This document shows, one piece after another, positions 2 to 63,144 of a stretch of DNA of 64,000 nucleotides (the stretch's first letter is position 1; each line of letters opens with the position of its first letter). A program made the translations under genes and the position numbers. The notes under the pieces are model-generated. The model worked only from the letters and a program-made list of their open reading frames with translations. It had not been told where the DNA came from and made no database searches. Location of the stretch: the IMG/VR virus record IMGVR_UViG_3300045988_158233; one strand, given 5' to 3'. The DNA comes from a virus. Lineage: Duplodnaviria; Heunggongvirae; Uroviricota; Caudoviricetes.

Positions 2-2902
2 GCCAGTTCGGCGGCGTCATCGGCATCATCTGCGTCTGCTTCAAAAGATGAGGCGACCAGACAGGCGTCAGCAGCGAAGGGCAGCGCCACGACGGCATCC
101 ACGAAAGCAACAGAGGCGGCAGGCAGTGCGACGGCAGCATCTCAGAGCAAAACTGCTGCTGAATCCGCTGCGACCCGTGCGGAAGCTGCTGCTGATCGTG
201 CTGAAGAGATTGCCGGTGCAGTTGCGATGGAAGACGCAAGCCTTACAACTAAAGGTGTTGTGAAACTTAGCAGTGCTGTCGATAGCACCAGTGAATCGCT
301 GGCCGCAACGCCAAAAGCAGTTAAGGCCGCATATGATAATGCTGAAAAAAGACTACAGAAGGATCAGAATGGTGCTGATATCCCAGACAAGGGCCGCTTC
401 CTGAGTAACATTAATGTTTACAGCAAAGGTGAAGTGGATAAGAAAAAGGGGATGCGAAAATACACTTTCTCTGCTCCTGCAAATGCAGTAAGCGGTAAGT
501 GGTATCCTGTAGTCTTTCGCCGAACTGGTGGTGGCACAGATGAATTAGCCTCACGAGTGGTTATCACCACTTATTCCTCAGCTGGCGGATACGCTATGAA
601 TAATTGTGAGTTTAATGGTTTTGTTATGCCGGGCGGTTGGTCTGATCGCGGTTCATATGCTGTTGGTTTTTTCTCAATATATTCAACCGTTGAACGATCT
701 ATACACTCGATTATCGCAAGCGTGAAAGATGATGATTTGTGTAGTGTATTTTACGTTGAGACAAGAGCATTCCCTATCCAGATTTTTGCTGAGGAAGGAT
801 TAAATGTGATTGTTCCAACGGCTGATTATGCAGTTGGTCAAACCACTTATAAGTGGGGGGCCACTGATCCTTTATCAGAAAGTACGAATGCACAGATAAT
901 TTTGGACTTTAAAAATGGACGAGGTTATTACTGTTCACATCCATTTATTTCAAGTCTTTCAGGAAATGCTGCTACAGCAACGAAATTACAGACGGCAAGA
1001 TCTATCGGTGGAGTTGGTTTCGACGGTTCTGCCAATATTAATCTTCCAGGTGTAAACACTACGGGTAATCAGAACACCACTGGTAATGCCGCAACTGCTA
1101 CAAAACTACAGACGGCAAGAACTATCGGCGGCGTGAGCTTTGATGGTACTGCAAATATTAATTTGCCAGGTGTTAATACGACTGGTAATCAGAATACAAC
1201 AGGTAATGCGGCTACTGCTACGAAGTTGCAGACTGCGCGTACTATTAATGGGGTGTCGTTTGACGGTTCGGCAAATATTTCCTTGTCACCAGCAAATATA
1301 GGTTGCCCAGCATCTCCTACTGGTTGGTTAACTACAGGAAGTAATGGCGGAGCAATAACAACAGCCCAGTTAGTGACGTTATTGCAAAATAATGGAGCCT
1401 TTAACACAAAGGCATGGATTGCTCGATGTGCGTGGGCCTATGCCAATAGCGCAACCATACCAAATAGTGAAACTGGTTGTGGCGTTATTCCATTGGCAGG
1501 AGCTGTTATAGAAGTATTTAATAACGGTAGTAGTTCAAATAATTATACGATCCGCATAACAACGGCCACAACGACAAGTGTTTCCGGTGCTCTCACTAAT
1601 GCGGAGTTTATCTATGTATTTAATGGCACAGATTATTCTCCAGGATGGCGAAGAGTATATAACACGAAAAACAAACCAACAGCCTCTGATGTCGGTGCAT
1701 TACCTCTTACCGGTGGTACATTATCTGGAGGTTTGACATCTTCTGGCGAGATCATTTCAAAATATGCAAATGGTTTCCGCATTGCTTACGGTAGCTTTGG
1801 GTTCTTTATCCGTAATGATGGATCGAACACATATTTCATGCTAACAGCATCAGGAGACACATTAGGTTCATGGAACGGTTTGCGACCTATTACAATTAAT
1901 AATACCAGCGGTGCTGTATCAATTGGTAATGGACTAAATGTGACTGGTGGCGTAAATGGTAGTTTGAACGGTAATGCTTCAACAGCTACGAAGTTGCAAA
2001 CAGCGAGAAACATCAATGGTGTTAAGTTTGATGGCTCAGGCGATATCAACATTAATACATTGGTATCTCGTGGCCGAGTTACGGCGTTAAGCGGTTCTAC
2101 TCAAGGTACTGCTGGCATTCAAATGTACGAGGCGTACAACAATAGCTACCCGACCACGTATGGCAACGTATTGCACATGAAAGGTGCGAGTGCTGCTGGT
2201 GAGGGCGAGTTGCTTATTGGCTGGAGTGGTACGAGCGGTGCACATGCGCCGGTTTTCATTCGCTCCAGAAGAGATACCACTGATGCGGCATGGTCAGCGT
2301 GGGCGCAGGTATATACCGCTAAGGATTCAATCCCTGGTGTGAATACAACCGGTAATCAGAATACTACTGGTAATGCCGCAACAGCCACAAAATTGCAGAC
2401 AGCAAGGAAAATTGCTGGTGTGGCGTTTGATGGCTCTGCCGATATAACTTTGACTGCGGCTAACCTTAATGCTTACACGAAAACAGAGGTAACAAACCTT
2501 CTAAGTTCCTATGTGAAGAGCAGTGCTCTTCCAAGCATGACTGTGCGAACTTCCTCTGTTTCAGGTGGGGATATGGGCATGAGCTTGTCCGCATTCATTA
2601 GCCACCTAAAATCAAATGGGGCGTTTAGCAAAAGTTATTGGATTGGCTTTGGCGATGCTATGGGATTCAATGCTGGCAGTATCAACAATATAACGGGATT
2701 TGGTGCTGTAGAATTAGCAGAATCTATAATCGAAGTTTTTAATCTACCTAACGGTGATTATACAATTCGTTTAACAACGTCACATAAAGCTGACTACGGT
2801 GGAGTTACAAACGCAATCCTCGTTTATCACTACCGTAGTAATAGAAGTCCGTCAGGTCAATGGCTGAAATTTGCAGGTACTGTTGGGGCAACAAGTAACT
2901 GA
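2..2902 (+). CDS. Tail fibre protein, 5'-partial (frame open from the window edge)
   Basis: Track ORF 227..2902 stays open in the same frame back to position 2 with an Ala/Ser/Thr-rich region; at least five copies of a ~30-aa repeat GNAATATKLQTAR-I-GV-FDG-ANINLPGVNTTGNQNTT typical of phage tail-fibre repeats; Gly/Ser/Thr/Asn-rich composition. Confidence 0.8.
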   Translation, partial: ASSAASSASSASASKDEATRQASAAKGSATTASTKATEAAGSATAASQSKTAAESAATRAEAAADRAEEIAGAVAMEDASLTTKGVVKLSSAVDSTSESLAATPKAVKAAYDNAEKRLQKDQNGADIPDKGRFLSNINVYSKGEVDKKKGMRKYTFSAPANAVSGKWYPVVFRRTGGGTDELASRVVITTYSSAGGYAMNNCEFNGFVMPGGWSDRGSYAVGFFSIYSTVERSIHSIIASVKDDDLCSVFYVETRAFPIQIFAEEGLNVIVPTADYAVGQTTYKWGATDPLSESTNAQIILDFKNGRGYYCSHPFISSLSGNAATATKLQTARSIGGVGFDGSANINLPGVNTTGNQNTTGNAATATKLQTARTIGGVSFDGTANINLPGVNTTGNQNTTGNAATATKLQTARTINGVSFDGSANISLSPANIGCPASPTGWLTTGSNGGAITTAQLVTLLQNNGAFNTKAWIARCAWAYANSATIPNSETGCGVIPLAGAVIEVFNNGSSSNNYTIRITTATTTSVSGALTNAEFIYVFNGTDYSPGWRRVYNTKNKPTASDVGALPLTGGTLSGGLTSSGEIISKYANGFRIAYGSFGFFIRNDGSNTYFMLTASGDTLGSWNGLRPITINNTSGAVSIGNGLNVTGGVNGSLNGNASTATKLQTARNINGVKFDGSGDININTLVSRGRVTALSGSTQGTAGIQMYEAYNNSYPTTYGNVLHMKGASAAGEGELLIGWSGTSGAHAPVFIRSRRDTTDAAWSAWAQVYTAKDSIPGVNTTGNQNTTGNAATATKLQTARKIAGVAFDGSADITLTAANLNAYTKTEVTNLLSSYVKSSALPSMTVRTSSVSGGDMGMSLSAFISHLKSNGAFSKSYWIGFGDAMGFNAGSINNITGFGAVELAESIIEVFNLPNGDYTIRLTTSHKADYGGVTNAILVYHYRSNRSPSGQWLKFAGTVGATSN

Positions 2903-3092
2903 TTTAGACATTATTTATATGGCTGTGAGGTTTAAAATGCGATCTCACAGCCGCAATCATAGGGATATATTAGTGAGTTACTAGATACGAATTTGAACAG
3001 CCGTTAAACGGCATATGCATAGATAGGTAAGTATATACCTATAATTGAAAGGAGAAGTGTGATATAAATCCGCCATCCCGATTTGACTTTTC

Positions 3093-3428
3093 ATGGAGGA
3101 AAATATGTCGAACGAGATGGCGGGCGTTACAACAGAGCAAGTTGAGCGTATTGCCGCGATCGTTGCTCGGGAGGTTGTTGGTAAATTAGGTAAAGAGCTA
3201 CGTGAAGAAATTGGCCAGGAGGTCAATGATCAGCTGAAAACCTACTTTGGTGATATGACCCCGGCGCAACATAGTATTCAACACTCCAATCTGGACAAAC
3301 TCCTTAACCGGTTAGATTCCATCTCCAGTGGGTTCTTTGGCGGCATTGTTTCTAAAATAACGTCGTTCATTATTACTGCACTGCTTTTGGGGTTAGCCGC
3401 GTATGGCGTAAAAAATGGACTGCAATAA
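3093..3428 (+). CDS. Small membrane protein with one C-terminal TM helix; possible holin (by position only)
   Basis: 111-aa ORF; C-terminal hydrophobic segment ITSFIITALLLGLAAYGV; directly precedes and overlaps the next gene ahead of the spanin pair. Confidence 0.3.
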   Translation: MEENMSNEMAGVTTEQVERIAAIVAREVVGKLGKELREEIGQEVNDQLKTYFGDMTPAQHSIQHSNLDKLLNRLDSISSGFFGGIVSKITSFIITALLLGLAAYGVKNGLQ

Positions 3429-4134
3429 CAGGAGATCAAGGATGAAGACTCCGAGAGGCATTCGTAATAATAACCCCGGTAATCTTGATAAAGGATCACC
3501 GTGGCAAGGTCTGGTTGCGAATCCAGACGAACCGCGCTTTTGCACGTTTAAAGACCCTGTTTGGGGGATTCGTGCGCTGGCGGTGACTCTAATTACCTAC
3601 CACGACAAACGTCGCGCAAAAGACGGCTCAAGTATCGATACCATTCGTGAAGTTATTGAACGTTGGGCACCGCCGAATGAAAACAATACTGACGCCTACA
3701 TTAATGAGGTGTCTAAAGCCGTTGGTGTAACCGCAGACATGATCATCGATCTGCATGATTACGACATCCTTCGACCTTTGGTTGAGGCAATCATTCGCCA
3801 TGAGAATGGGCGAGGTCCGCTAAAAACGCTGAACACCTGGTATGCGGCAGAAGTTATTGAGGAAGGTCTGCGTCGAGCTGGCGTCGTTAAGCCGGTGAAA
3901 ACCGTGAAGGCTGTTCCTGTAACTAAAGAAACCGCAGGCGCAACTGTCACAGCAGGTATTGGTCTGGCGCAGCTGGCCGATGTTATGCAGCAGGTTTCCG
4001 CTGCTATGGATAAAGCACAAGGTCATATCTCTAGCGGGGATACAGTACGCATCATCTTCGGTATTGCCACTATTGTTGTGGCAGGATTCATTGCCTGGTC
4101 GCAGGTAAGAAAACACCAGAAAGGGATGGTCTAA
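3415..4134 (+). CDS. Conserved phage protein in endolysin position (fold not recognised), C-terminal TM anchor
   Basis: 239-aa ORF with GIRNNNPGNL motif near the N-terminus and hydrophobic C-terminus IIFGIATIVVAGFIAWSQV; lies between the putative holin and the spanins. Confidence 0.35.
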   Translation: MDCNNRRSRMKTPRGIRNNNPGNLDKGSPWQGLVANPDEPRFCTFKDPVWGIRALAVTLITYHDKRRAKDGSSIDTIREVIERWAPPNENNTDAYINEVSKAVGVTADMIIDLHDYDILRPLVEAIIRHENGRGPLKTLNTWYAAEVIEEGLRRAGVVKPVKTVKAVPVTKETAGATVTAGIGLAQLADVMQQVSAAMDKAQGHISSGDTVRIIFGIATIVVAGFIAWSQVRKHQKGMV

Positions 4135-7143: not shown

Positions 7144-8217
7144 CTATTCGTAGTTAAGCTCACCGAACAGACTGAACATCAAGTCACCATCCAAAATTTC
7201 AAAGGGCAACTCGACATACTCATCCTTATGTCTCGGAATTGCGTTGCCGTCGTTAGGGGCATTCTTGGTATAACCTTTTACATGTTTACCGTTTTCTTTT
7301 GTATACGGCAGCACGACAATTCGACCGTGATTTTTTGAAATGATAGTTCCTTCTTTCCAGAGCGTATTGCCTCTTGAGGTGGTTTCGCTTTCGCTAGCAA
7401 CTTTAACACTCCAACCTACCTGATTTTTGTCCTCAAACCAGAAAACAAAGTTGCCAACAACCAGTACCTTTTGCCCATTCCTGAGAGCTTCATCCAGCAT
7501 TCTTTTTACGCTGGCGAGTTGCAGTAACCGGTTAGCACGCGGCAGAAGCATTGAGCGAATAGTCGCTTTTGTTTTTCCCCAATGTGCAGCGCCTGATAAA
7601 CCAAAACCTCTGGCTATGCGTTCTTGGTAGCAGATCTTCGCTGTCTTAGCTTTGTTGTTATATGAACATTCCCAAGTGTTAGGAGCAACGAGTTGAAGTG
7701 AAACTTGGAATTTGGGAAGAAAAACAAAATGTAAGTAAGGCATCTCGCTTAGCACGTCAAAAAGGGGTTGACGCAAAGTTTCGTAATCTGGGTTAATTAT
7801 TAACTCATTTAATGTCACTCGCGGATCGTTGGCGTGTGCCTTAATTGCTTCGTTGAGCATTATATGCTCTTCATCCATGAGACGTGATTTGGCTTTGAGT
7901 GCTTTGTCAACTTTCAAACGCAATGACTTCTTTTGAAACATAGATAGAGGAAGTTTTTCAATGTCAAAGCTCACGTTTTTATTCAGCTCTAATGCCGCTT
8001 TTCTTGCTTCAGGATAGTTATCGTAGTCGTCATCAAAAGCGTGGTTTGGCATACCACGATCAACATATCGCCGATACCAAGCAAGGGTTCCATCATTACG
8101 GAGTTTCAGACAGAACATCGACCATTTATTCCGTTCATATTTAGGCTGAGGCCAAAAAGCCAGTTCGGGAAGGCCATATCCTGGAAGTCTATTCATGCGC
8201 ATGGTGACAATATCCAC
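7144..8217 (-). CDS. Hypothetical protein (oppositely oriented moron-like gene)
   Basis: 357-aa ORF on the minus strand, convergent with the partition operon; no motif recognised. Confidence 0.5.
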   Translation of the reverse strand: MDIVTMRMNRLPGYGLPELAFWPQPKYERNKWSMFCLKLRNDGTLAWYRRYVDRGMPNHAFDDDYDNYPEARKAALELNKNVSFDIEKLPLSMFQKKSLRLKVDKALKAKSRLMDEEHIMLNEAIKAHANDPRVTLNELIINPDYETLRQPLFDVLSEMPYLHFVFLPKFQVSLQLVAPNTWECSYNNKAKTAKICYQERIARGFGLSGAAHWGKTKATIRSMLLPRANRLLQLASVKRMLDEALRNGQKVLVVGNFVFWFEDKNQVGWSVKVASESETTSRGNTLWKEGTIISKNHGRIVVLPYTKENGKHVKGYTKNAPNDGNAIPRHKDEYVELPFEILDGDLMFSLFGELNYE

Positions 8218-8320
8218 GAGGCTAAAACACTGATTCTAACATGATCTCCCTTGATAAATCTGTCAATGACATAGCATCTGGGGTTGGAGTCAAATTATGT
8301 TGTTCTTGGTATCCATTAGG

Positions 8321-8376
8321 AGCCTGTTTCTGTATATAAATAATAAGTAACTTATTAAATATATACGGAAGCAGGT
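8321..8376 (+). other. Long conserved hairpin (copy 1 of a family with 53698..53731 and 55461..55519)
   Basis: agcctgtttctgtatata ... tatacggaagcaggt: ~14-16-bp stem with two G-U pairs and an AT-rich loop, followed by T-run. Confidence 0.5.
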
Positions 8377-8482
8377 CTTTTAAAAGACACCACCAGACCA
8401 ACTCCCTTCCGTTTTCACTTCCAAAAACTGACACCAGTCGCTATCATCCGCTCATTGTGATAAGTAAGTAACTACCTACCAG

Positions 8483-9232
8483 GTGAGCCACATGAGCCAA
8501 ATCTTTTTCGATACCATCGACAACGACCAGTACGACTTCATGACAGAGTGGAATACCGCTGTTATGGACAAGTGGGTCGCTGAAAACATTGGTTTGTCGC
8601 GCTGTAAAGACGAGGCTGAACTCTTCGAGACGAAGTGGTTTGATTACCGCGACATGCATCCTCTGATGGCCACCTGTCTATTTACGGAGGCATACAAACG
8701 TCAGTACTCAAATATCATGCTGACGCACGGTCGCGAACACTTTGAAACAGCTCCGTTCACCACCGGGTTAAAACGCCTGCCTTATCAGGAGTTGTCGACT
8801 GCCAATAAAACGTCGCTATGGAAAGCACGCCAGTTTGCTGACCGCTATTGCTGCTCATACGACTACTTTATCTCCACCGTTCTTTCCGCAGCTGCACGAC
8901 GACTGTGGGACAAGCTGCCGCGTCCGCAGCATTTGTGGCAGCCAGAACTGATTGAGATATTTGAAGATAAATTAGCCAGACGCGCAACAACCCGTCTGGA
9001 TGACTCTCTGGTTAGCTTTAAGCATATGGGAGACATGCAGTTCAACCCGATTCAGGAAAGCTATTTTGAGTGGATTCTGGAGCGTTTACGCGCCATCCCC
9101 CGCAGCAAGCGCATACGCGCAATTTTCTCCGCTATCTGGCTAATGGAAATCGTTCCAGAGCGCCTTATTTCCGCCCACTTTCCAGAAGAACTGGAAGAAG
9201 CACGGCGGTTTATTGATCCCCTATCTAATTAA
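8483..9232 (+). CDS. Hypothetical protein (first gene of the replication block)
   Basis: 249-aa ORF immediately upstream of the helicase; no motif recognised. Confidence 0.4.
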   Translation: MSHMSQIFFDTIDNDQYDFMTEWNTAVMDKWVAENIGLSRCKDEAELFETKWFDYRDMHPLMATCLFTEAYKRQYSNIMLTHGREHFETAPFTTGLKRLPYQELSTANKTSLWKARQFADRYCCSYDYFISTVLSAAARRLWDKLPRPQHLWQPELIEIFEDKLARRATTRLDDSLVSFKHMGDMQFNPIQESYFEWILERLRAIPRSKRIRAIFSAIWLMEIVPERLISAHFPEELEEARRFIDPLSN

Positions 9233-54833: not shown

Positions 54834-55439
54834 TTGAGAAAGAAGATGATTGCAGCCGAAAAAATCAAAAAGCGAAAGCGCGACAACTCTCTTCGTGACC
54901 TCTGGAGAACACCTGACTGGCTGTTTAATGCCATTCAACGTTATCTGGGAGTGACATTTGATGTTGACGTTGCCTGCAATAAGGACAATGCAAAGCTGCC
55001 TATTTTCATAGGCGTTGAGCGCGATGCTTTGAAATCTGAATGGGGGCAGCCAGGTACAATTGCCTTCCTCAATCCACCCTACTCCAAAATCTCCCCCTGG
55101 ATTGATGCGGCTATACGTGAGCAGGCTCGCGGAGTTACAACAGTGATGCTAATTCCTCAATCCCTCGATACAAAGTGGTATGAGCGTGCAACAGAGTGTG
55201 CGAATGAGACGATTATTCTGTCTGGTGGCCGCGTAGCGTTTGTCGAGCCTGACGTCAATCTGGGTCAGGTAGAAGTAAACATCAACCCCGGTGGCAGTAT
55301 GCTCGTTGTTTTTCGCGGATTCTGTCAGGACGCTGGGCACTCTATAAGCAAGATCCCTTTGGACGTCATGAAAAGTCTGGGAGGGTATGATCCTGCGAAT
55401 GTGATCAGGAAAAAAAGACCATCAAAGAAGGCTGCTTAG
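54834..55439 (+). CDS. Phage-type DNA N6-adenine methyltransferase (Dam-like)
   Basis: 201 aa; catalytic NPPY in IAFLNPPYSKISPW; overall size and layout of small phage Dam enzymes. Confidence 0.6.
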   Translation: MRKKMIAAEKIKKRKRDNSLRDLWRTPDWLFNAIQRYLGVTFDVDVACNKDNAKLPIFIGVERDALKSEWGQPGTIAFLNPPYSKISPWIDAAIREQARGVTTVMLIPQSLDTKWYERATECANETIILSGGRVAFVEPDVNLGQVEVNINPGGSMLVVFRGFCQDAGHSISKIPLDVMKSLGGYDPANVIRKKRPSKKAA

Positions 55440-55856: not shown

Positions 55857-56438
55857 TAGATAAGTACAAACTATTCATAAAGTGAATTGTAAGTGCTAAG
55901 ATCTGATAGTTTCCAGTCGTAGACTGGAGGCTCGATCTGATGGGTGGGGGTAAGCGTCACTGGCGTCAGGTTTAAAAAAGCTCACTACCAGCGTAGAACC
56001 GGTGCCGTTTAGGTGTCGGGGAAGGGGGAACCAAAGTGAGCAGAGACAAGGGTCACTTTATGATTGTCGAGTCTGGGGTGTTTCGAGAGGTTGAATCCAG
56101 TACTCCCCTTCATAAAGTGTGGGAAGATCTCGGTTCTGGGGTGCTGTCATCCATAACTTCCCAAGTCTAAGCTGGCAGTAGACTTAGACCATAGCTTTTC
56201 AGGTTATGAAACGACCAGGTTGGTGAGGAATTTTATACTCACCTCCCTGGGAGAGTATTACCTGAAAAGACAACCTCTCACTTCGTTCGAGGTGAACTTC
56301 ACTCACTTCGTTCGTTCAGTTCAGGTTTATAAAAACCTGTTCTGGGAAGTAATTTGTTTATTTTAATAATTATTAACACGCACGCGTGTGCGCACGCGCG
56401 AGGAAAAAATCGGCGCGGCGCTTGATTCAGGAGTTTAT

Positions 56439-57032
56439 ATGACGACGAAGACACCAGCCCGATCGCAAGCAAAAACTCGCAAAAAAGACAAAAACAAAAA
56501 TTCTCCCCGCACCAATCCCACAACGCCTGTCGTAGAGTTCAACCCCCAGCTTAAAACCGTGAAAATCTTTAGTGATGGCTCTTGCCTCAAAAATCCGGGT
56601 GGCCCGGGCGGTTACGGTATCGTTCTCCAGTATCGTGGTGAGGAACGCGAGTTCTCAGATGGTTTTCATAGCACCACCAATAACCGCATGGAGATGATGG
56701 GGGCACTTATCGGGCTGGAGCGTTTGAAATATCCATGCAACGTTATTTTGTACTCTGATAGCCAGTATCTGAAAAACGGCATGACACAGTGGATGAAATG
56801 GTGGAAACGTAATGGATGGATGACTTCTGATAAAAAACCGGTAAAGAATGTTGATCTGTGGAAACGTCTGGATGAGGCCGCAAGTCGACATAATGTTCGC
56901 TGGAAGTGGGTTAAAGGTCACGCCGGGCATCGTGAAAATGAAATATGTGATCGACTCGCGAAGATCGCAGCTTTTTCCGCAGCCGATACGCCTCACAAGA
57001 AAGACATTGGTTTTATTTACAACAAGTGGTAA
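56439..57032 (+). CDS. Ribonuclease H (RNase HI family)
   Basis: [65 protein letters not shown]; start placed at ATG with RBS caggag (track ORF begins 56388). Confidence 0.8.
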
Positions 57033-57963: not shown

Positions 57964-58389
57964 ATGTTAGGTTTCTTCAAAAAGAAAACTCGTAAAGCTG
58001 TTATCGAAGTCAAAAAAATGGAGAACCGTGATGCGGTTGAAGCCACCGTGTGGGGCGGGTACATGATCTCCTATGCCAACGGTACATGCGATGCAAAAGA
58101 AATTTCCATTCTTGAGAAAACAATTGCAGCTCTGCCTGCATTTTCTCCTTTTGCTGGTGAGATTGCCCAGATGAGCGCCAATATCCGCGCTCAATACGAA
58201 GCCTCACCGCGCCGTGCTAATGCCCAGGCTTTACGTGAGCTGGCGGATGTGGCCGGGACTGATGATGCAGTAGATGTACTGTGTCTGTGCCTTGATATTG
58301 CCGACCAGGACGGCATTGATGAACCAGAAGAGCAGGCGCTGAAAAAGATCGCCCAGGCGCTTCAGTTGTCACTGGATGCTTATCTCTAA
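57964..58389 (+). CDS. Hypothetical protein, possibly TerB-like
   Basis: 141 aa; helical, with acidic motif LCLCLDIADQDGIDEPEEQALKKIAQAL reminiscent of TerB-type domains (weak, from memory). Confidence 0.35.
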   Translation: MLGFFKKKTRKAVIEVKKMENRDAVEATVWGGYMISYANGTCDAKEISILEKTIAALPAFSPFAGEIAQMSANIRAQYEASPRRANAQALRELADVAGTDDAVDVLCLCLDIADQDGIDEPEEQALKKIAQALQLSLDAYL

Positions 58390-58686: not shown

Positions 58687-59256
58687 ATGTGCAAGAAATG
58701 CAAAGCGATAGCTGATGAACAAAACGCCTTATTCGAAGAAATGGATGCTAATGAACTGGTCAAAATGTTAGCCATTCTTCGAGGAATAGAAGACGTTTCC
58801 ATATTTGAGAGAGTGGTTACAGCACTTAATTTTGAGTCCACCTTTGAAGAGCCAACTCAGGTTGTAGCTTTAGCACATCATTTCGGTGTTCATTATCTTG
58901 CTGAAAAAGAGCGCGCTGATAAGTTGCAGGCGACTTTGGATATGGTGAGCGAGACTCAACGAACTGATGACACTAACAAGAGTGAGGCGATTATTGCCAG
59001 CAAAGATCGTGAAATTGCTGGGCTTAAATCCTCTCTAACGATGTTGATGTCTGCGTTCAATCTTATGTCTTCTCAGGCGGGTTATAAAATGCCATCACTA
59101 AACAGCGATGATCCGATGGCCGTTCGTCAGCTTTTGGGAGCAATGGCCGACCAACTCGACGACACAAAGAGTCGCCTTGAAGACATGATGCGTGAGTTAA
59201 GCCATCGACATAACCTCGCAACACAACCACACAAAGTCTTTCAAAGCTCTAATTGA
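58687..59256 (+). CDS. Hypothetical protein
   Basis: 189-aa ORF, helical. Confidence 0.4.
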   Translation: MCKKCKAIADEQNALFEEMDANELVKMLAILRGIEDVSIFERVVTALNFESTFEEPTQVVALAHHFGVHYLAEKERADKLQATLDMVSETQRTDDTNKSEAIIASKDREIAGLKSSLTMLMSAFNLMSSQAGYKMPSLNSDDPMAVRQLLGAMADQLDDTKSRLEDMMRELSHRHNLATQPHKVFQSSN

Positions 59257-59310
59257 TCTGATATGGCCGCATGATCGGCCATATTGTGTTGATAAAAACA
59301 AGGGTGAAAA

Positions 59311-59592
59311 ATGGCATACGGTACAGGGATTTACAACAATAAAGGAATTAACGTTACTGGCTTCCTTACACCTATTTTTTTTCTTGATCGATTTACGGCG
59401 TCATCAGGCTCTAAGACGTACTCTAATCCGCCACCGGGTAAATCACTACATGCCGTGTGGTCATTAATGCCTCTTAACAACGACAACTACATCAATTTAC
59501 CTGTTCCAAATGTTACTATTAATGGAAATACGGTTAGTTGGTCAAATTTATATACGGGGCTTGGTTCTTACATATACACATACTGGGGATAA
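59311..59592 (+). CDS. Hypothetical protein (AT-rich pair, gene 1)
   Basis: 93-aa ORF; Asn/Gly/Thr/Tyr-rich. Confidence 0.35.
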   Translation: MAYGTGIYNNKGINVTGFLTPIFFLDRFTASSGSKTYSNPPPGKSLHAVWSLMPLNNDNYINLPVPNVTINGNTVSWSNLYTGLGSYIYTYWG

Positions 59593-59594
59593 TT

Positions 59595-60209
59595 ATGTTC
59601 GGGATGTCAATTACTCAATCAGATGGAAGTTTGTGGATGAGTCCAGAATTTACTCCGCAAAATCTGATTAATAAAGGGACAATGTCTACATCTAAAGGTT
59701 CTGTTTTTCAAACATCAATCCCATCAAACAAATCATGTTTTTTTTTCATAAAAAGCAGTAATAAGGCGAACATGATGTTTATTCATGAGCATAGTAACGG
59801 ATACAATGCTCTCAGATTGCATCAGGTAAATGGTAGCCCCGGAACAATAACAGTTTATGCTTTTTCTGATATGGTGTTACCACATTCTGGCTATGGCATT
59901 GCCATGTATAACAGCGCAGGCGCAATGGTGTATCACGGTGAGATGATGCCCCTTGATGCGAAACTTATCACTATTTCTGACCCTCAATTTACAATAGATA
60001 TGGGGTATCCATGTGCGGTAATGCCTGCTATGGTTGGAGTATATAACTATAGACGAACCGATTACGACAGACCTGTCTATGTAACAATGACAGGTGCAAC
60101 TGGAAACCAAGTATATAACGGTCAATGGTATTCCGGTAATGTCACATGGGATATTAAGAAGATTTATACAAACAAAATTCTGGTGATAAATACCTCCAAG
60201 TATGATTAG
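59595..60209 (+). CDS. Hypothetical protein (AT-rich pair, gene 2)
   Basis: Internal ATG of track ORF 59538..60209, 2 nt after the previous stop; Tyr/Asn/Gly-rich beta-type composition. Confidence 0.35.
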   Translation: MFGMSITQSDGSLWMSPEFTPQNLINKGTMSTSKGSVFQTSIPSNKSCFFFIKSSNKANMMFIHEHSNGYNALRLHQVNGSPGTITVYAFSDMVLPHSGYGIAMYNSAGAMVYHGEMMPLDAKLITISDPQFTIDMGYPCAVMPAMVGVYNYRRTDYDRPVYVTMTGATGNQVYNGQWYSGNVTWDIKKIYTNKILVINTSKYD

Positions 60210-60312
60210 CCAATGCCTTTATTTGAAGGATTGCCTGTTTATTTCTATTTAGTACCTTTTCATTTTTGAAATAATTGCACCATTAAACAAATCACTTCTT
60301 AATGGTGCAATT

Positions 60313-61998
60313 ATGAATACAGCCCTTTCCATCATCGACGATGCCAACTCAAACACTGCTATCGACTATCGGCAGGAAATGAACGTCATCCACGAAATTG
60401 TGGCCGAGTGCGAGAAAGAGATCGCCTTCATGTATCAGGTTCACGACTTCGTTTATGGCGACGAACGCCACAACATGATTAATCGCCTGCTGAGACTAAA
60501 CCATCGACCAGATGAAGATCGCTCGCGTTTAAATCGAGGTTGGTTGGATAAAGTCGATCTGGAATGGGTGAAACAGAATATTTGGGCCGAGTACTGGAGG
60601 AAGGTCACGGACATGACTAACGTTTTGCTGATCATGCCAGCTTCCCGTCGAGATGAGTGGCGCGAGCAGTTTATAGAGGGCAAACAGGAAGTCATCAAAA
60701 CTGACAGAACCGGCTACCAGATGAAGGTTAAAGAGTTCGTTGGTGTACCGGAGTTCAAAGCAGAAACGGTCATACCCACGATGCTTAATTTGCTGAATGA
60801 CAGGCACAAATATCTCTCTGAGCGCGTGTATGGCTTGTTTAAGGCGCTGAGTCCTGCGCACAAGACAAATAAGACAAACGGTTTCAGCGAGCGTCTGATA
60901 ATCGCTGACTGCATTTCTGATTTCTGGCGGGACAGCGTTAGCGTGAACTATCGCAAAGAGGACTACATCGACGATCTGCGTGTCTTGCTTCATTTCTTCG
61001 CGCACAAAGAATTTATTACCATCAACCGCACTGCTGAGGTGCTATCAGCTGCGTATCGGGCAAACGACTGCCAGACCGGTGACTGGATGAACGTCGATGG
61101 AAATCTGATGCGCGTGAAGATGTTCAAGAACGGCAACGTTCACTTTGAAATACATCCTGACGTGGCCTGGAAGTTGAATGAGGTGCTGGCTTACAGTATG
61201 CCTGCTGCAATTCCCGCGCCATGCCGAACTGCGCCAAAAACACGGGCACCAAAGCAGTTCGGGTTAATCCAGAAGACGATCTCCGTGCCGGTTCGCACTG
61301 CGCTTCGTGACGGGCGATTTAGCAAAGACAAAGGCGTATGGTACTTCTCTGATTCAGCTCTCCAGAAGTCGCAGGTGGAAGAGCTTGAGCGCACACTGAG
61401 CTTCATTGGCGGCGTGCAGGAGAAAAAGCACTGGCAGTTCCCGTATGAGATCGGCCATACGCTAAATACGATTGTGGCTACCGGTTTAATACCGGATACA
61501 AAATCACACCAGTTCTACCCTACCCCACGCTTGATTGCTGAGTACGTTGCCAGAGCCACTGAATTGAAGCCTGGTGAGAAGTTGTTGGAGCCTCAAGCCG
61601 GACGTGGGGATCTTCTGGCCTATATTAACGCCGATCTGGAAGATGTTACCTGCATAGAAATCGCACCTCTCTTCGCTGATATCCTGCGTGGAAAAGGGTA
61701 TACGAACACGATTTGCTGCGACTTCATAAAGTGGTCTGAGGACAACGCAGGTTATCAGTTCGACAAAATCGTTATGAACCCGCCGTACTCGCTTGGTCGT
61801 CATAGAGAGCACACGCTGGCTGCGCTGGGGCATCTGAAAGTCGGCGGGCGTCTTGTAGCAGTATTGCCGGGCACTGCGCCAATACTGGACTGGATGACGA
61901 TGGATAATTACGTTTATGCCAGAGGGAAGTCGTTTACCAACGAGTTTGAAGACACAGGGATCACAGTCAGCGTATACGTTTTCAAACGCGTTAAATGA
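60313..61998 (+). CDS. Two-domain protein: unknown N-terminal domain (~370 aa) fused to a C-terminal N6-adenine DNA methyltransferase domain
   Basis: C-terminal AdoMet-binding motif LLEPQAGRGDL followed ~70 aa later by catalytic NPPY (VMNPPYSLG); N-terminal two-thirds unrecognised. Confidence 0.55.
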   Translation: MNTALSIIDDANSNTAIDYRQEMNVIHEIVAECEKEIAFMYQVHDFVYGDERHNMINRLLRLNHRPDEDRSRLNRGWLDKVDLEWVKQNIWAEYWRKVTDMTNVLLIMPASRRDEWREQFIEGKQEVIKTDRTGYQMKVKEFVGVPEFKAETVIPTMLNLLNDRHKYLSERVYGLFKALSPAHKTNKTNGFSERLIIADCISDFWRDSVSVNYRKEDYIDDLRVLLHFFAHKEFITINRTAEVLSAAYRANDCQTGDWMNVDGNLMRVKMFKNGNVHFEIHPDVAWKLNEVLAYSMPAAIPAPCRTAPKTRAPKQFGLIQKTISVPVRTALRDGRFSKDKGVWYFSDSALQKSQVEELERTLSFIGGVQEKKHWQFPYEIGHTLNTIVATGLIPDTKSHQFYPTPRLIAEYVARATELKPGEKLLEPQAGRGDLLAYINADLEDVTCIEIAPLFADILRGKGYTNTICCDFIKWSEDNAGYQFDKIVMNPPYSLGRHREHTLAALGHLKVGGRLVAVLPGTAPILDWMTMDNYVYARGKSFTNEFEDTGITVSVYVFKRVK

Positions 61999-62059
61999 TA
62001 GGTAAATACTTACTTAATTTGTGTAAGAATGTAATAACTAAACGATAAGAGAAAAACAC

Positions 62060-62764
62060 ATGAACAACCTCCAGTTAGAGCATTTTAACGTCACAGGCCA
62101 TTCTGATTTTCCTTTCAAGTTTACATTGAAAGGTTATGCAGAGGATGCGGTAGGCCAGATCATTATTGATAAAGGCATCGTTAAGTTTGAGGGGGATTTT
62201 GATGAATCCGCGAAAACATTCATAGACTTCGTTGCCAAACGTTGGAGCGAGCAATGGAAAGACCTGGAAAAGCGCGCTAATGAGTTTGATCGGTTCATGG
62301 ATGCAATGGATACAGCAAAAGAGGCTCTTGCTGCCGGGACTCCGTTAGATCTGGAGTCACTTTTCAACGGCGAAGTGGCCTCTGCGATGTTCGCCACCAT
62401 GTTCGCGGGTGAGTTCGTCCGCAGCGGTGCCAAAAACTACCTTGAGCTGGATTACAACGTCCCTGCAATTGGCGATTTCGTCGTTACCATCCAACGCAAA
62501 GAAGGTAAGACGCCAGGTGAACGCGTCGCAGAGCTTGAGGCCGTTGTGGATCAGCGTAACGGAGAGTGTGACCGTTTGATCAACGAGCTTCATGCACTTC
62601 GGGAAGAAAGAATATGCGCGGGTAGTAATACACGTAATGCAGCGGATATCTACTTCCAGTTAGTTGAGGAATGCCAGATTCCACCAGGTGGCTCTCTTGT
62701 CGATTACGTCAGACATTTAATGGCGGAAGTTAACTCCAGCCATAAAGATGGTGAGGTGCGCTGA
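62060..62764 (+). CDS. Hypothetical protein
   Basis: 234-aa ORF with conserved AGAAAAACACATG start context. Confidence 0.4.
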   Translation: MNNLQLEHFNVTGHSDFPFKFTLKGYAEDAVGQIIIDKGIVKFEGDFDESAKTFIDFVAKRWSEQWKDLEKRANEFDRFMDAMDTAKEALAAGTPLDLESLFNGEVASAMFATMFAGEFVRSGAKNYLELDYNVPAIGDFVVTIQRKEGKTPGERVAELEAVVDQRNGECDRLINELHALREERICAGSNTRNAADIYFQLVEECQIPPGGSLVDYVRHLMAEVNSSHKDGEVR

Positions 62765-63144
62765 TGTTTGGCATTGATGCACAGCGTATAGCCGCTTTTG
62801 CAAAAAGTCCTCTTGATAATCCCTTGTCTCGTAGTGAGCAAATGGCGCTGGCAAGGCTTTTTCTTCACATTCAAAAACAGGCAGACGTTTTCAATAACAT
62901 GCCTGATCAACCTATTCTGGATGGTCACATCCAGATGGTCATTAACAGTCATGAGAAAGGCTGGGCTGCAATCGTCCCCTGCACAATTACATACAAGTTG
63001 GCGAAAGAGGTTCAAGAGTTTCGAAAAGCCAGTGTCGAATCGGAGTCTACCAAAGCCGCAATAAACACTCTTATTCGCATGGGGTTCACATGGACCGGTG
63101 GAGCCTACTGGCAAGCACCTCAACCCATTTTATCCGGCAATTAG
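62764..63144 (+). CDS. Hypothetical protein
   Basis: 126-aa ORF, start overlapping previous stop. Confidence 0.35.
   Translation: MFGIDAQRIAAFAKSPLDNPLSRSEQMALARLFLHIQKQADVFNNMPDQPILDGHIQMVINSHEKGWAAIVPCTITYKLAKEVQEFRKASVESESTKAAINTLIRMGFTWTGGAYWQAPQPILSGN

Follow-up and report, generated by a model that had tools for sequence, protein, structure and literature searches.

The window analysed here is a 64,000-nucleotide stretch of the viral record IMGVR_UViG_3300045988_158233. At positions 60313 to 61998 it carries a gene for a 561-amino-acid (aa) protein, in which a conserved DUF4942 domain precedes a C-terminal N6-adenine methyltransferase core. We lean towards the reading that this protein is an active orphan N6-adenine DNA methyltransferase with DUF4942 as its accessory module, which would methylate the DNA of its own element against restriction.

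By its gene content, the window was assigned to an Escherichia coli phage-plasmid of the SSU5/pHCM2 type, since the plasmid CP099126.1 carries capsid, portal, terminase, tail, RepA, DnaE, primase, ligase, and partition genes. CP099126.1 (110.6 kb) is one of the E. coli plasmids with a 100% identical gene, which are approximately 110 kb in size, non-mobilisable, and IncFIB-typed. The open reading frame (ORF) 60313..61998 is a genuine gene rather than a chance ORF, because it is conserved in plasmid, phage, and E. coli genome records. The plasmid records number 557 and span Escherichia, Klebsiella, Enterobacter, Salmonella, Citrobacter, and Cronobacter; 11 phage records contain the gene, and so do 251 of 5426 complete E. 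coli genomes, nearly always on a plasmid. The protein WFY99400.1 of CP099126.1 is 100% identical and is annotated as a "DUF4942 domain-containing protein". PHROG 6263, "DNA methyltransferase", covers the protein from end to end (E=8.9e-300). The orthologue in Salmonella phage SSU5, gp95, showed 90% nucleotide identity over the full length and had the same neighbours and the same 561-aa architecture, with no material difference. A promoter scan of 59000-62900 found no sigma-70-like promoter. The limits of the segments listed below were taken from an AlphaFold2 (AF2) model, the conservation profile, and the alignment to stand-alone relatives; the identities are mean pairwise values over 27 sequences.

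60313..61998, + strand: DUF4942-methyltransferase gene, 561 aa, from the ORF list (ATG start, TGA stop at 61996-61998)
60313..60564, + strand: aa 1-84, variable acidic (pI 4.9), mostly helical N-terminal region; identity 0.28
60565..61227, + strand: aa 85-305, DUF4942 (PF13708) core, ending at AIPAPCR; identity 0.52
61228..61497, + strand: aa 306-395, variable basic (pI 9.6) small alpha/beta linker domain; identity 0.32, down to 0.21 at aa 331-360
61498..61995, + strand: aa 396-561, minimal class-I S-adenosylmethionine (SAM) methyltransferase core in gamma order; identity 0.48
61510-61527, + strand: motif X, QFYPTP, aa 400-405
61582-61614, + strand: motif I, LLEPQAGRGDL, aa 424-434
61777-61788, + strand: motif IV, NPPY, aa 489-492, inside KIVMNPPYSLG

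A first-pass annotation of the sequence had quoted the LLEPQAGRGDL and NPPY (VMNPPYSLG) motifs and had proposed an N6-adenine methyltransferase of gamma order in the C-terminal part. Both motifs were recovered, and the assignment holds, as the motifs are conserved and the fold matches. The acidic residue of motif II is E449 and motif III is D470-F471; the order X-I-II-III-IV, with just 19 aa separating III from IV, is the gamma order and contains no insertion. The catalytic motif residues were invariant or near-invariant in the alignment of 27 homologues, down to 34% identity. The core has the class-I SAM-dependent Rossmann-like methyltransferase fold, and approximately 155-164 of its 166 residues can be aligned with catalytic domains from characterised enzymes. 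When the methyltransferase half was compared with known structures, the scores were 19.3 for METTL5, 18.2 for PH1948, 17.6 for M.BseCI, 17.4 for M.TaqI, 16.7 for CamA (27% identity), and approximately 16.5 for Type I HsdM proteins. The likeness to Type I HsdM is limited to the catalytic core; no Pfam match to HsdM_N was obtained, and neither hsdS nor hsdR is found on CP099126.1.

With the 27-sequence family profile, M.TaqI was the top sequence match in the PDB, although the similarity is marginal (E=3.5e-4). The core was also matched by several PHROG DNA-methyltransferase families and by the PADLOC models mad2 (the MADS methyltransferase, 1.1e-15) and MTase_II (2.1e-10), and PHROG 9133 spans aa 329-560 as a single unit. 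The Pfam N6_Mtase model (PF02384) scored 13.6 bits, under its gathering cutoff of 20.4; because of this, the RefSeq name is merely "DUF4942 domain-containing". The protein shares the Rossmann catalytic fold and the motif order X-I-II-III-IV(NPPY)-V-VIII with M.TaqI, M.BseCI, and CamA. However, M.TaqI-type enzymes have a C-terminal target-recognition domain (TRD) of approximately 170-300 aa, whereas this protein stops 69 aa after NPPY and instead has approximately 395 aa before the core. All extra sequence is N-terminal, and no TRD of the M.TaqI kind, C-terminal to motif VIII, is present in the protein.

The N-terminal part had been described as a domain of about 370 aa with no recognisable signature. 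Sequence of that extent does stand in front of the methyltransferase, but it comprises three segments (aa 1-84, 85-305, and 306-395) and not one domain, and it does carry a known signature: PF13708 matched at aa 140-295 with 73.9 bits against a gathering cutoff of 25. In the AF2 model, residues 1-16 are of low confidence and helices are formed by residues 20-48 and 52-62. The DUF4942 core carries the conserved motifs RxEWxxQ, LSxxHxTNxxxGF, DDLR, and GxxHxxxHPD, and in the fused family R164, R171, R223, R305, H183, H277, and H281 are invariant (27-homologue alignment). When the N-terminal 395 aa were compared with the PDB, both as a single sequence and as the 27-sequence profile, only noise was obtained (ZorA with an E of 0.075, UDP-glucose dehydrogenase, and uL15). 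A Foldseek search of viral predicted structures returned one uncharacterised 247-aa protein and nothing informative.

The homologues of the Klebsiella type are 76-78% identical to the query in DUF4942 and 52-54% in the methyltransferase half. One homologue, P0044 from a 29.9-kb contig, combines the two types. Its aa 1-305 are 96-98% identical to the E. coli/Citrobacter type, whereas its aa 306-561 match the Klebsiella type at 86-89% identity and the E. coli/Citrobacter type at only approximately 50%. On this pattern of identities, P0044 is a natural chimera whose halves were exchanged by recombination at the DUF4942 boundary, and the breakpoint (approximately 305) coincides exactly with the end of the stand-alone DUF4942 proteins described below. 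DUF4942 is probably not a variable specificity domain, since it is the most conserved segment, since its boundary is the breakpoint of the P0044 chimera, and since the stand-alone forms end there. In P0044 the linker domain, aa 306-395, moves together with the methyltransferase half, and this linker is a candidate DNA-contact or specificity element.

The first-pass annotation had also regarded the two-domain form as unusual. An exhaustive search with aa 1-341 returned 622 clusters at 50% identity, and the 150 best matches were mostly 510-580 aa long. Among the 129 full-length cluster representatives, NPP[YF] was found in 126 and motif I in 123, from which the catalytic motifs can be judged to be under selection across the family. 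By the same comparison, the fusion of DUF4942 to a methyltransferase is the norm within a large family, and gp95 of SSU5 had already been annotated as a DNA methyltransferase. A Pfam scan of relatives with atypical lengths found no further domain partners of DUF4942. The C-terminal module alone, used as query, returned mostly gene fragments and no new architectures.

The tblastn matches in phages had either the architecture of approximately 540-560 aa or the catalytic core alone inside giant proteins. In the giant proteins (PHROGs 15406, 11358, and 10691), which share only the catalytic core and are without DUF4942, the core at aa ~396-520 matched at 1e-8 to 1e-19. The PHROG families that match this core have profiles some 1,260 to 3,900 positions long, and a 3066-aa protein of Vibrio phage D53 (23363-32563 of OZ195752.1) contains it at query aa ~399-522 with 37% identity. 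These giant proteins may resemble the multifunctional injected proteins of the P1 DarB type.

Members of the fusion family were often found beside other orphan methyltransferases. In lambdoid prophages of Variovorax and of an Enterobacterales genome, they lie in the early region and directly adjoin orphan methyltransferases of the N6_N4 and C5 types. In Pseudomonas phage PSA-2T, the member lies next to a Lar-like restriction-alleviation gene and another methyltransferase, and in IncHI2 plasmids a Dam gene lies approximately 1.8 kb upstream of the member with one gene between. Members are also present in Pseudomonas phage Touem01 and in the Aeromonas phages ST4 and phiA005. The company of methyltransferase and Lar-like genes suggests that the substrate is DNA and that these proteins usually serve to evade restriction.

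DUF4942 also exists without a methyltransferase domain. The stand-alone proteins (YdiA/YgfB) are approximately 280 aa long, 282-286 aa in two plasmids, and represent the archetype of PF13708 with 172-174 bits; they have no SAM or catalytic motifs. They are homologous to aa ~85-305 of the fusion, with W95, T102, W116, Q119, S180, T185, N186, H277, and N289 in common. By tblastn, DUF4942 is encoded in at least 5000 plasmid records, at least 3649 of them conjugative, and the domain is also present in CP4-like genomic islands and in SPI-3. Two of the plasmid loci were extracted:

IncI1 plasmid pESBL-EA11, 7824-8672 of the extracted locus: stand-alone DUF4942 gene adjoining the origin of transfer (oriT) and nikA, in a leading region with ardA and psiAB
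pOXA-48-like IncL/M plasmid, 7719-8579 of the extracted locus: stand-alone DUF4942 gene in a leading region with ssb and an anti-restriction gene, likewise at the end nearest oriT

In a published list of leading-region genes, the stand-alone family ranks 24th of the 100 largest enriched families, with 2171 members, a median position from oriT of 1, and no known function (Samuel et al. 2024). A possible identity of the stand-alone protein with M.EcoGIX of pESBL, by which DUF4942 would itself have been a methyltransferase, was rejected, as M.EcoGIX is a beta-class enzyme with DPPY and the stand-alone DUF4942 sequences are without SAM or catalytic motifs. M.EcoGIX and M.BceJIII are single-strand-specific enzymes of the leading region which guard DNA against restriction as it enters the cell (Fomenkov et al. 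2020, PMC7736820). They are likewise N6-methyladenine (m6A) orphans on mobile elements, but the analogy is functional only; they are small, beta-class, and without DUF4942, and belong to a different family from this gamma-class NPPY protein.

As a tentative idea, which we hold to be rather doubtful, DUF4942 might be an autonomous module for DNA entry or establishment. Alone, it is typically encoded by the first gene that a conjugative plasmid brings into the recipient; fused, it would deliver a methyltransferase lacking a TRD to the incoming or replicating DNA of the element for broad protection of low specificity. If this is true, the fusion would be a "Rosetta stone" tying a leading-region family that is among the largest uncharacterised ones to anti-restriction by methylation. 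The stand-alone protein, for instance, might bring in a methyltransferase in trans or shield the entering DNA.

For the protein of this window, the analyses establish where its domains begin and end, that its catalytic motifs are intact, its fold, the modular break near residue 305, and the genomic contexts of the family; we infer that DNA is the substrate, that the role is anti-restriction, and that DUF4942 has a binding partner. Catalysis would reside in the minimal 166-aa gamma-order Rossmann core at the C-terminus, which is without a TRD of its own. DNA contact and any sequence preference would most likely be contributed by the variable basic segment aa 306-395 and by a variable loop at aa 526-540. 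DUF4942 (aa ~85-305) would serve as a conserved accessory module with an invariant binding target, which may be DNA, bound irrespective of its sequence, or a conserved host or replication factor; through this binding, the methyltransferase would be positioned on the element's own DNA. The resulting self-methylation would let the element survive restriction when it infects or establishes itself in a new host, beside a separate Dam enzyme and the avoidance of 6-bp palindromes. These and the other features around the gene are as follows.

54846..55439, + strand: small phage-type Dam N6-adenine methyltransferase (PF05869, TIGR01712, PHROG 111)
60271..60314, + strand: RNA hairpin or DNA palindrome with a perfect 16-bp stem (ATAATTGCACCATTAA / TTAATGGTGCAATTAT)
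60988..61020, - strand: protospacer within the gene, 33/33 match to a spacer of E. coli AST85, with an ATG protospacer adjacent motif (PAM)

The second enzyme, proposed in the first-pass annotation as Dam-like at 54834..55439, is a phage Dam, as both models exceed their cutoffs: PF05869 matched at 2.4e-37 with 128.6 bits against 28.1, and TIGR01712 with 113 bits against 97.05. Its start in the identical record CP099126.1 is the ATG at 54846 (197 aa), and the ORF reaches back to a TTG at 54834. The co-oriented block around the gene includes, at 56388-57032 and 57964-58389, an RNase H (PF00075, 1.3e-45) and a TerB-domain protein; the PLSDB gene table of CP099126.1, which is stated to be incomplete, lists no coding sequence for the RNase H. 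In Pfam, the neighbouring ORFs matched only RNase H and TerB, and no further nuclease. The description of the methyltransferase as an orphan on a mobile element is reasonable going by the annotated features, since no restriction endonuclease is found among the 120 annotated features of the identical 110.6-kb plasmid.

The hairpin covers the likely GGUG Shine-Dalgarno sequence and the first two bases of the AUG. Its minimum free energy was -19.1 kcal/mol (z = -6.1), and none of 200 shuffled sequences was equally stable. No second copy occurs in the window; SSU5 and GArcari-2022b have just its CACCA/TGGTG core, and this core is absent in Klebsiella phage pJN2-26. The hairpin may be a translational control element or an operator.

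The AST85 spacer is the leader-proximal, and thus newest, spacer of an iap-adjacent type I-E CRISPR array (extracted locus 1201-1233), and its PAM is functional. Because this spacer matches the gene at all 33 positions, E. coli CRISPR has kept a record of meeting this phage-plasmid. The complete E. coli genomes gave nine chromosomal matches to the gene, of which the one in AST85 was inspected.

Across the window, 6-bp palindromes were strongly depleted, with a median observed-to-expected ratio (O/E) of 0.72 compared to 1.00 for non-palindromes (Mann-Whitney p=2e-12). CCATGG, CGTACG, CTCGAG, GAGCTC, GCATGC, and GGCGCC were absent, and CTGCAG, AGCGCT, and CACGTG occurred once each against 8-15 expected. 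GATC (O/E 0.88) and TCGA (1.02) were not avoided. By these counts, passive restriction-site avoidance coexists with two methyltransferases in this element.

Several other explanations of the fusion were considered. The first-pass annotation had suggested target recognition for the N-terminal part, and DUF4942 could be an N-terminally placed, unusually conserved TRD for a specific DNA motif. The catalytic core is without its own TRD, almost every full-length close relative has DUF4942 fused N-terminally to a methyltransferase of this subfamily, several Arg and His residues are invariant in the DUF4942 of the fused family, and the predicted template modelling score of the full-length AF2 model (pTM 0.71) suggests a fairly defined arrangement of the domains. 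Nevertheless, we think this unlikely, as the domain is the most conserved segment of the protein, bears no resemblance to any solved TRD, and occurs without a methyltransferase. DUF4942 is thus not a common, known TRD, yet it is a domain already in the databases. Somewhat less likely again is a mainly regulatory role, in which methylation would control the replication, packaging, or lysis-lysogeny decision of the element. Dam methylation acts in this way in P1 packaging and in the control of plasmid replication, and the gene behaves as a core gene in SSU5-like elements of Escherichia, Salmonella, Klebsiella, Enterobacter, Citrobacter, Cronobacter, Providencia, and Xenorhabdus. It lies within a long run of co-oriented genes for DNA metabolism (DHFR, exonuclease, Dam, and RNase H), and in this lineage its start is buried in the strong hairpin, which hints at controlled expression. 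However, the distant relatives lie among orphan methyltransferases and a Lar-like gene in unrelated phages, which anti-restriction fits better. A regulatory role would at the same time be compatible with the anti-restriction role that we favour.

A substrate other than DNA, namely RNA (m6A or N2-methylguanine) or a protein glutamine, as in METTL5, RsmC/D, and HemK, appears improbable. All significant sequence-model matches are DNA methyltransferases (1e-10 to 1e-19), the matches to RNA methyltransferases fall far under the curated cutoffs, M.TaqI is the best sequence match in the PDB, QFYPTP resembles motif X of the gamma DNA enzymes, and the genomic neighbours encode DNA methyltransferases and restriction alleviation. 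The least likely of the explanations, and in our view a very improbable one, is a single-chain restriction-modification enzyme of the Type IIG kind with DUF4942 as the nuclease. In Type IIG enzymes a gamma methyltransferase does come after an N-terminal nuclease, one phage record calls a homologue "RE endonuclease", and in the model H277 and N289 are placed on a strand-helix element; against this, the protein lacks a nuclease fold, conserved acidic residues, and a C-terminal TRD, and it falls outside the MmeI type.

Database entries exist for both the gene and its architecture, in RefSeq, as PHROG 6263, and as SSU5 gp95, "DNA methyltransferase". Literature searches on DUF4942, on SSU5/pHCM2 methyltransferases, and on ydiA returned no functional study, methylome, or enzymology of any member. 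As a widespread orphan methyltransferase of a common phage-plasmid family the protein is ordinary, and the residual interest lies in the link that the fusion makes between DUF4942 and DNA methylation. Orphan enzymes of this kind help mobile elements, including resistance carriers, to pass restriction barriers between Enterobacterales. The SSU5-type fusion is a tractable handle on the function of DUF4942, as it offers a single plasmid gene, modules with a clean boundary, and chimeras that occur naturally.

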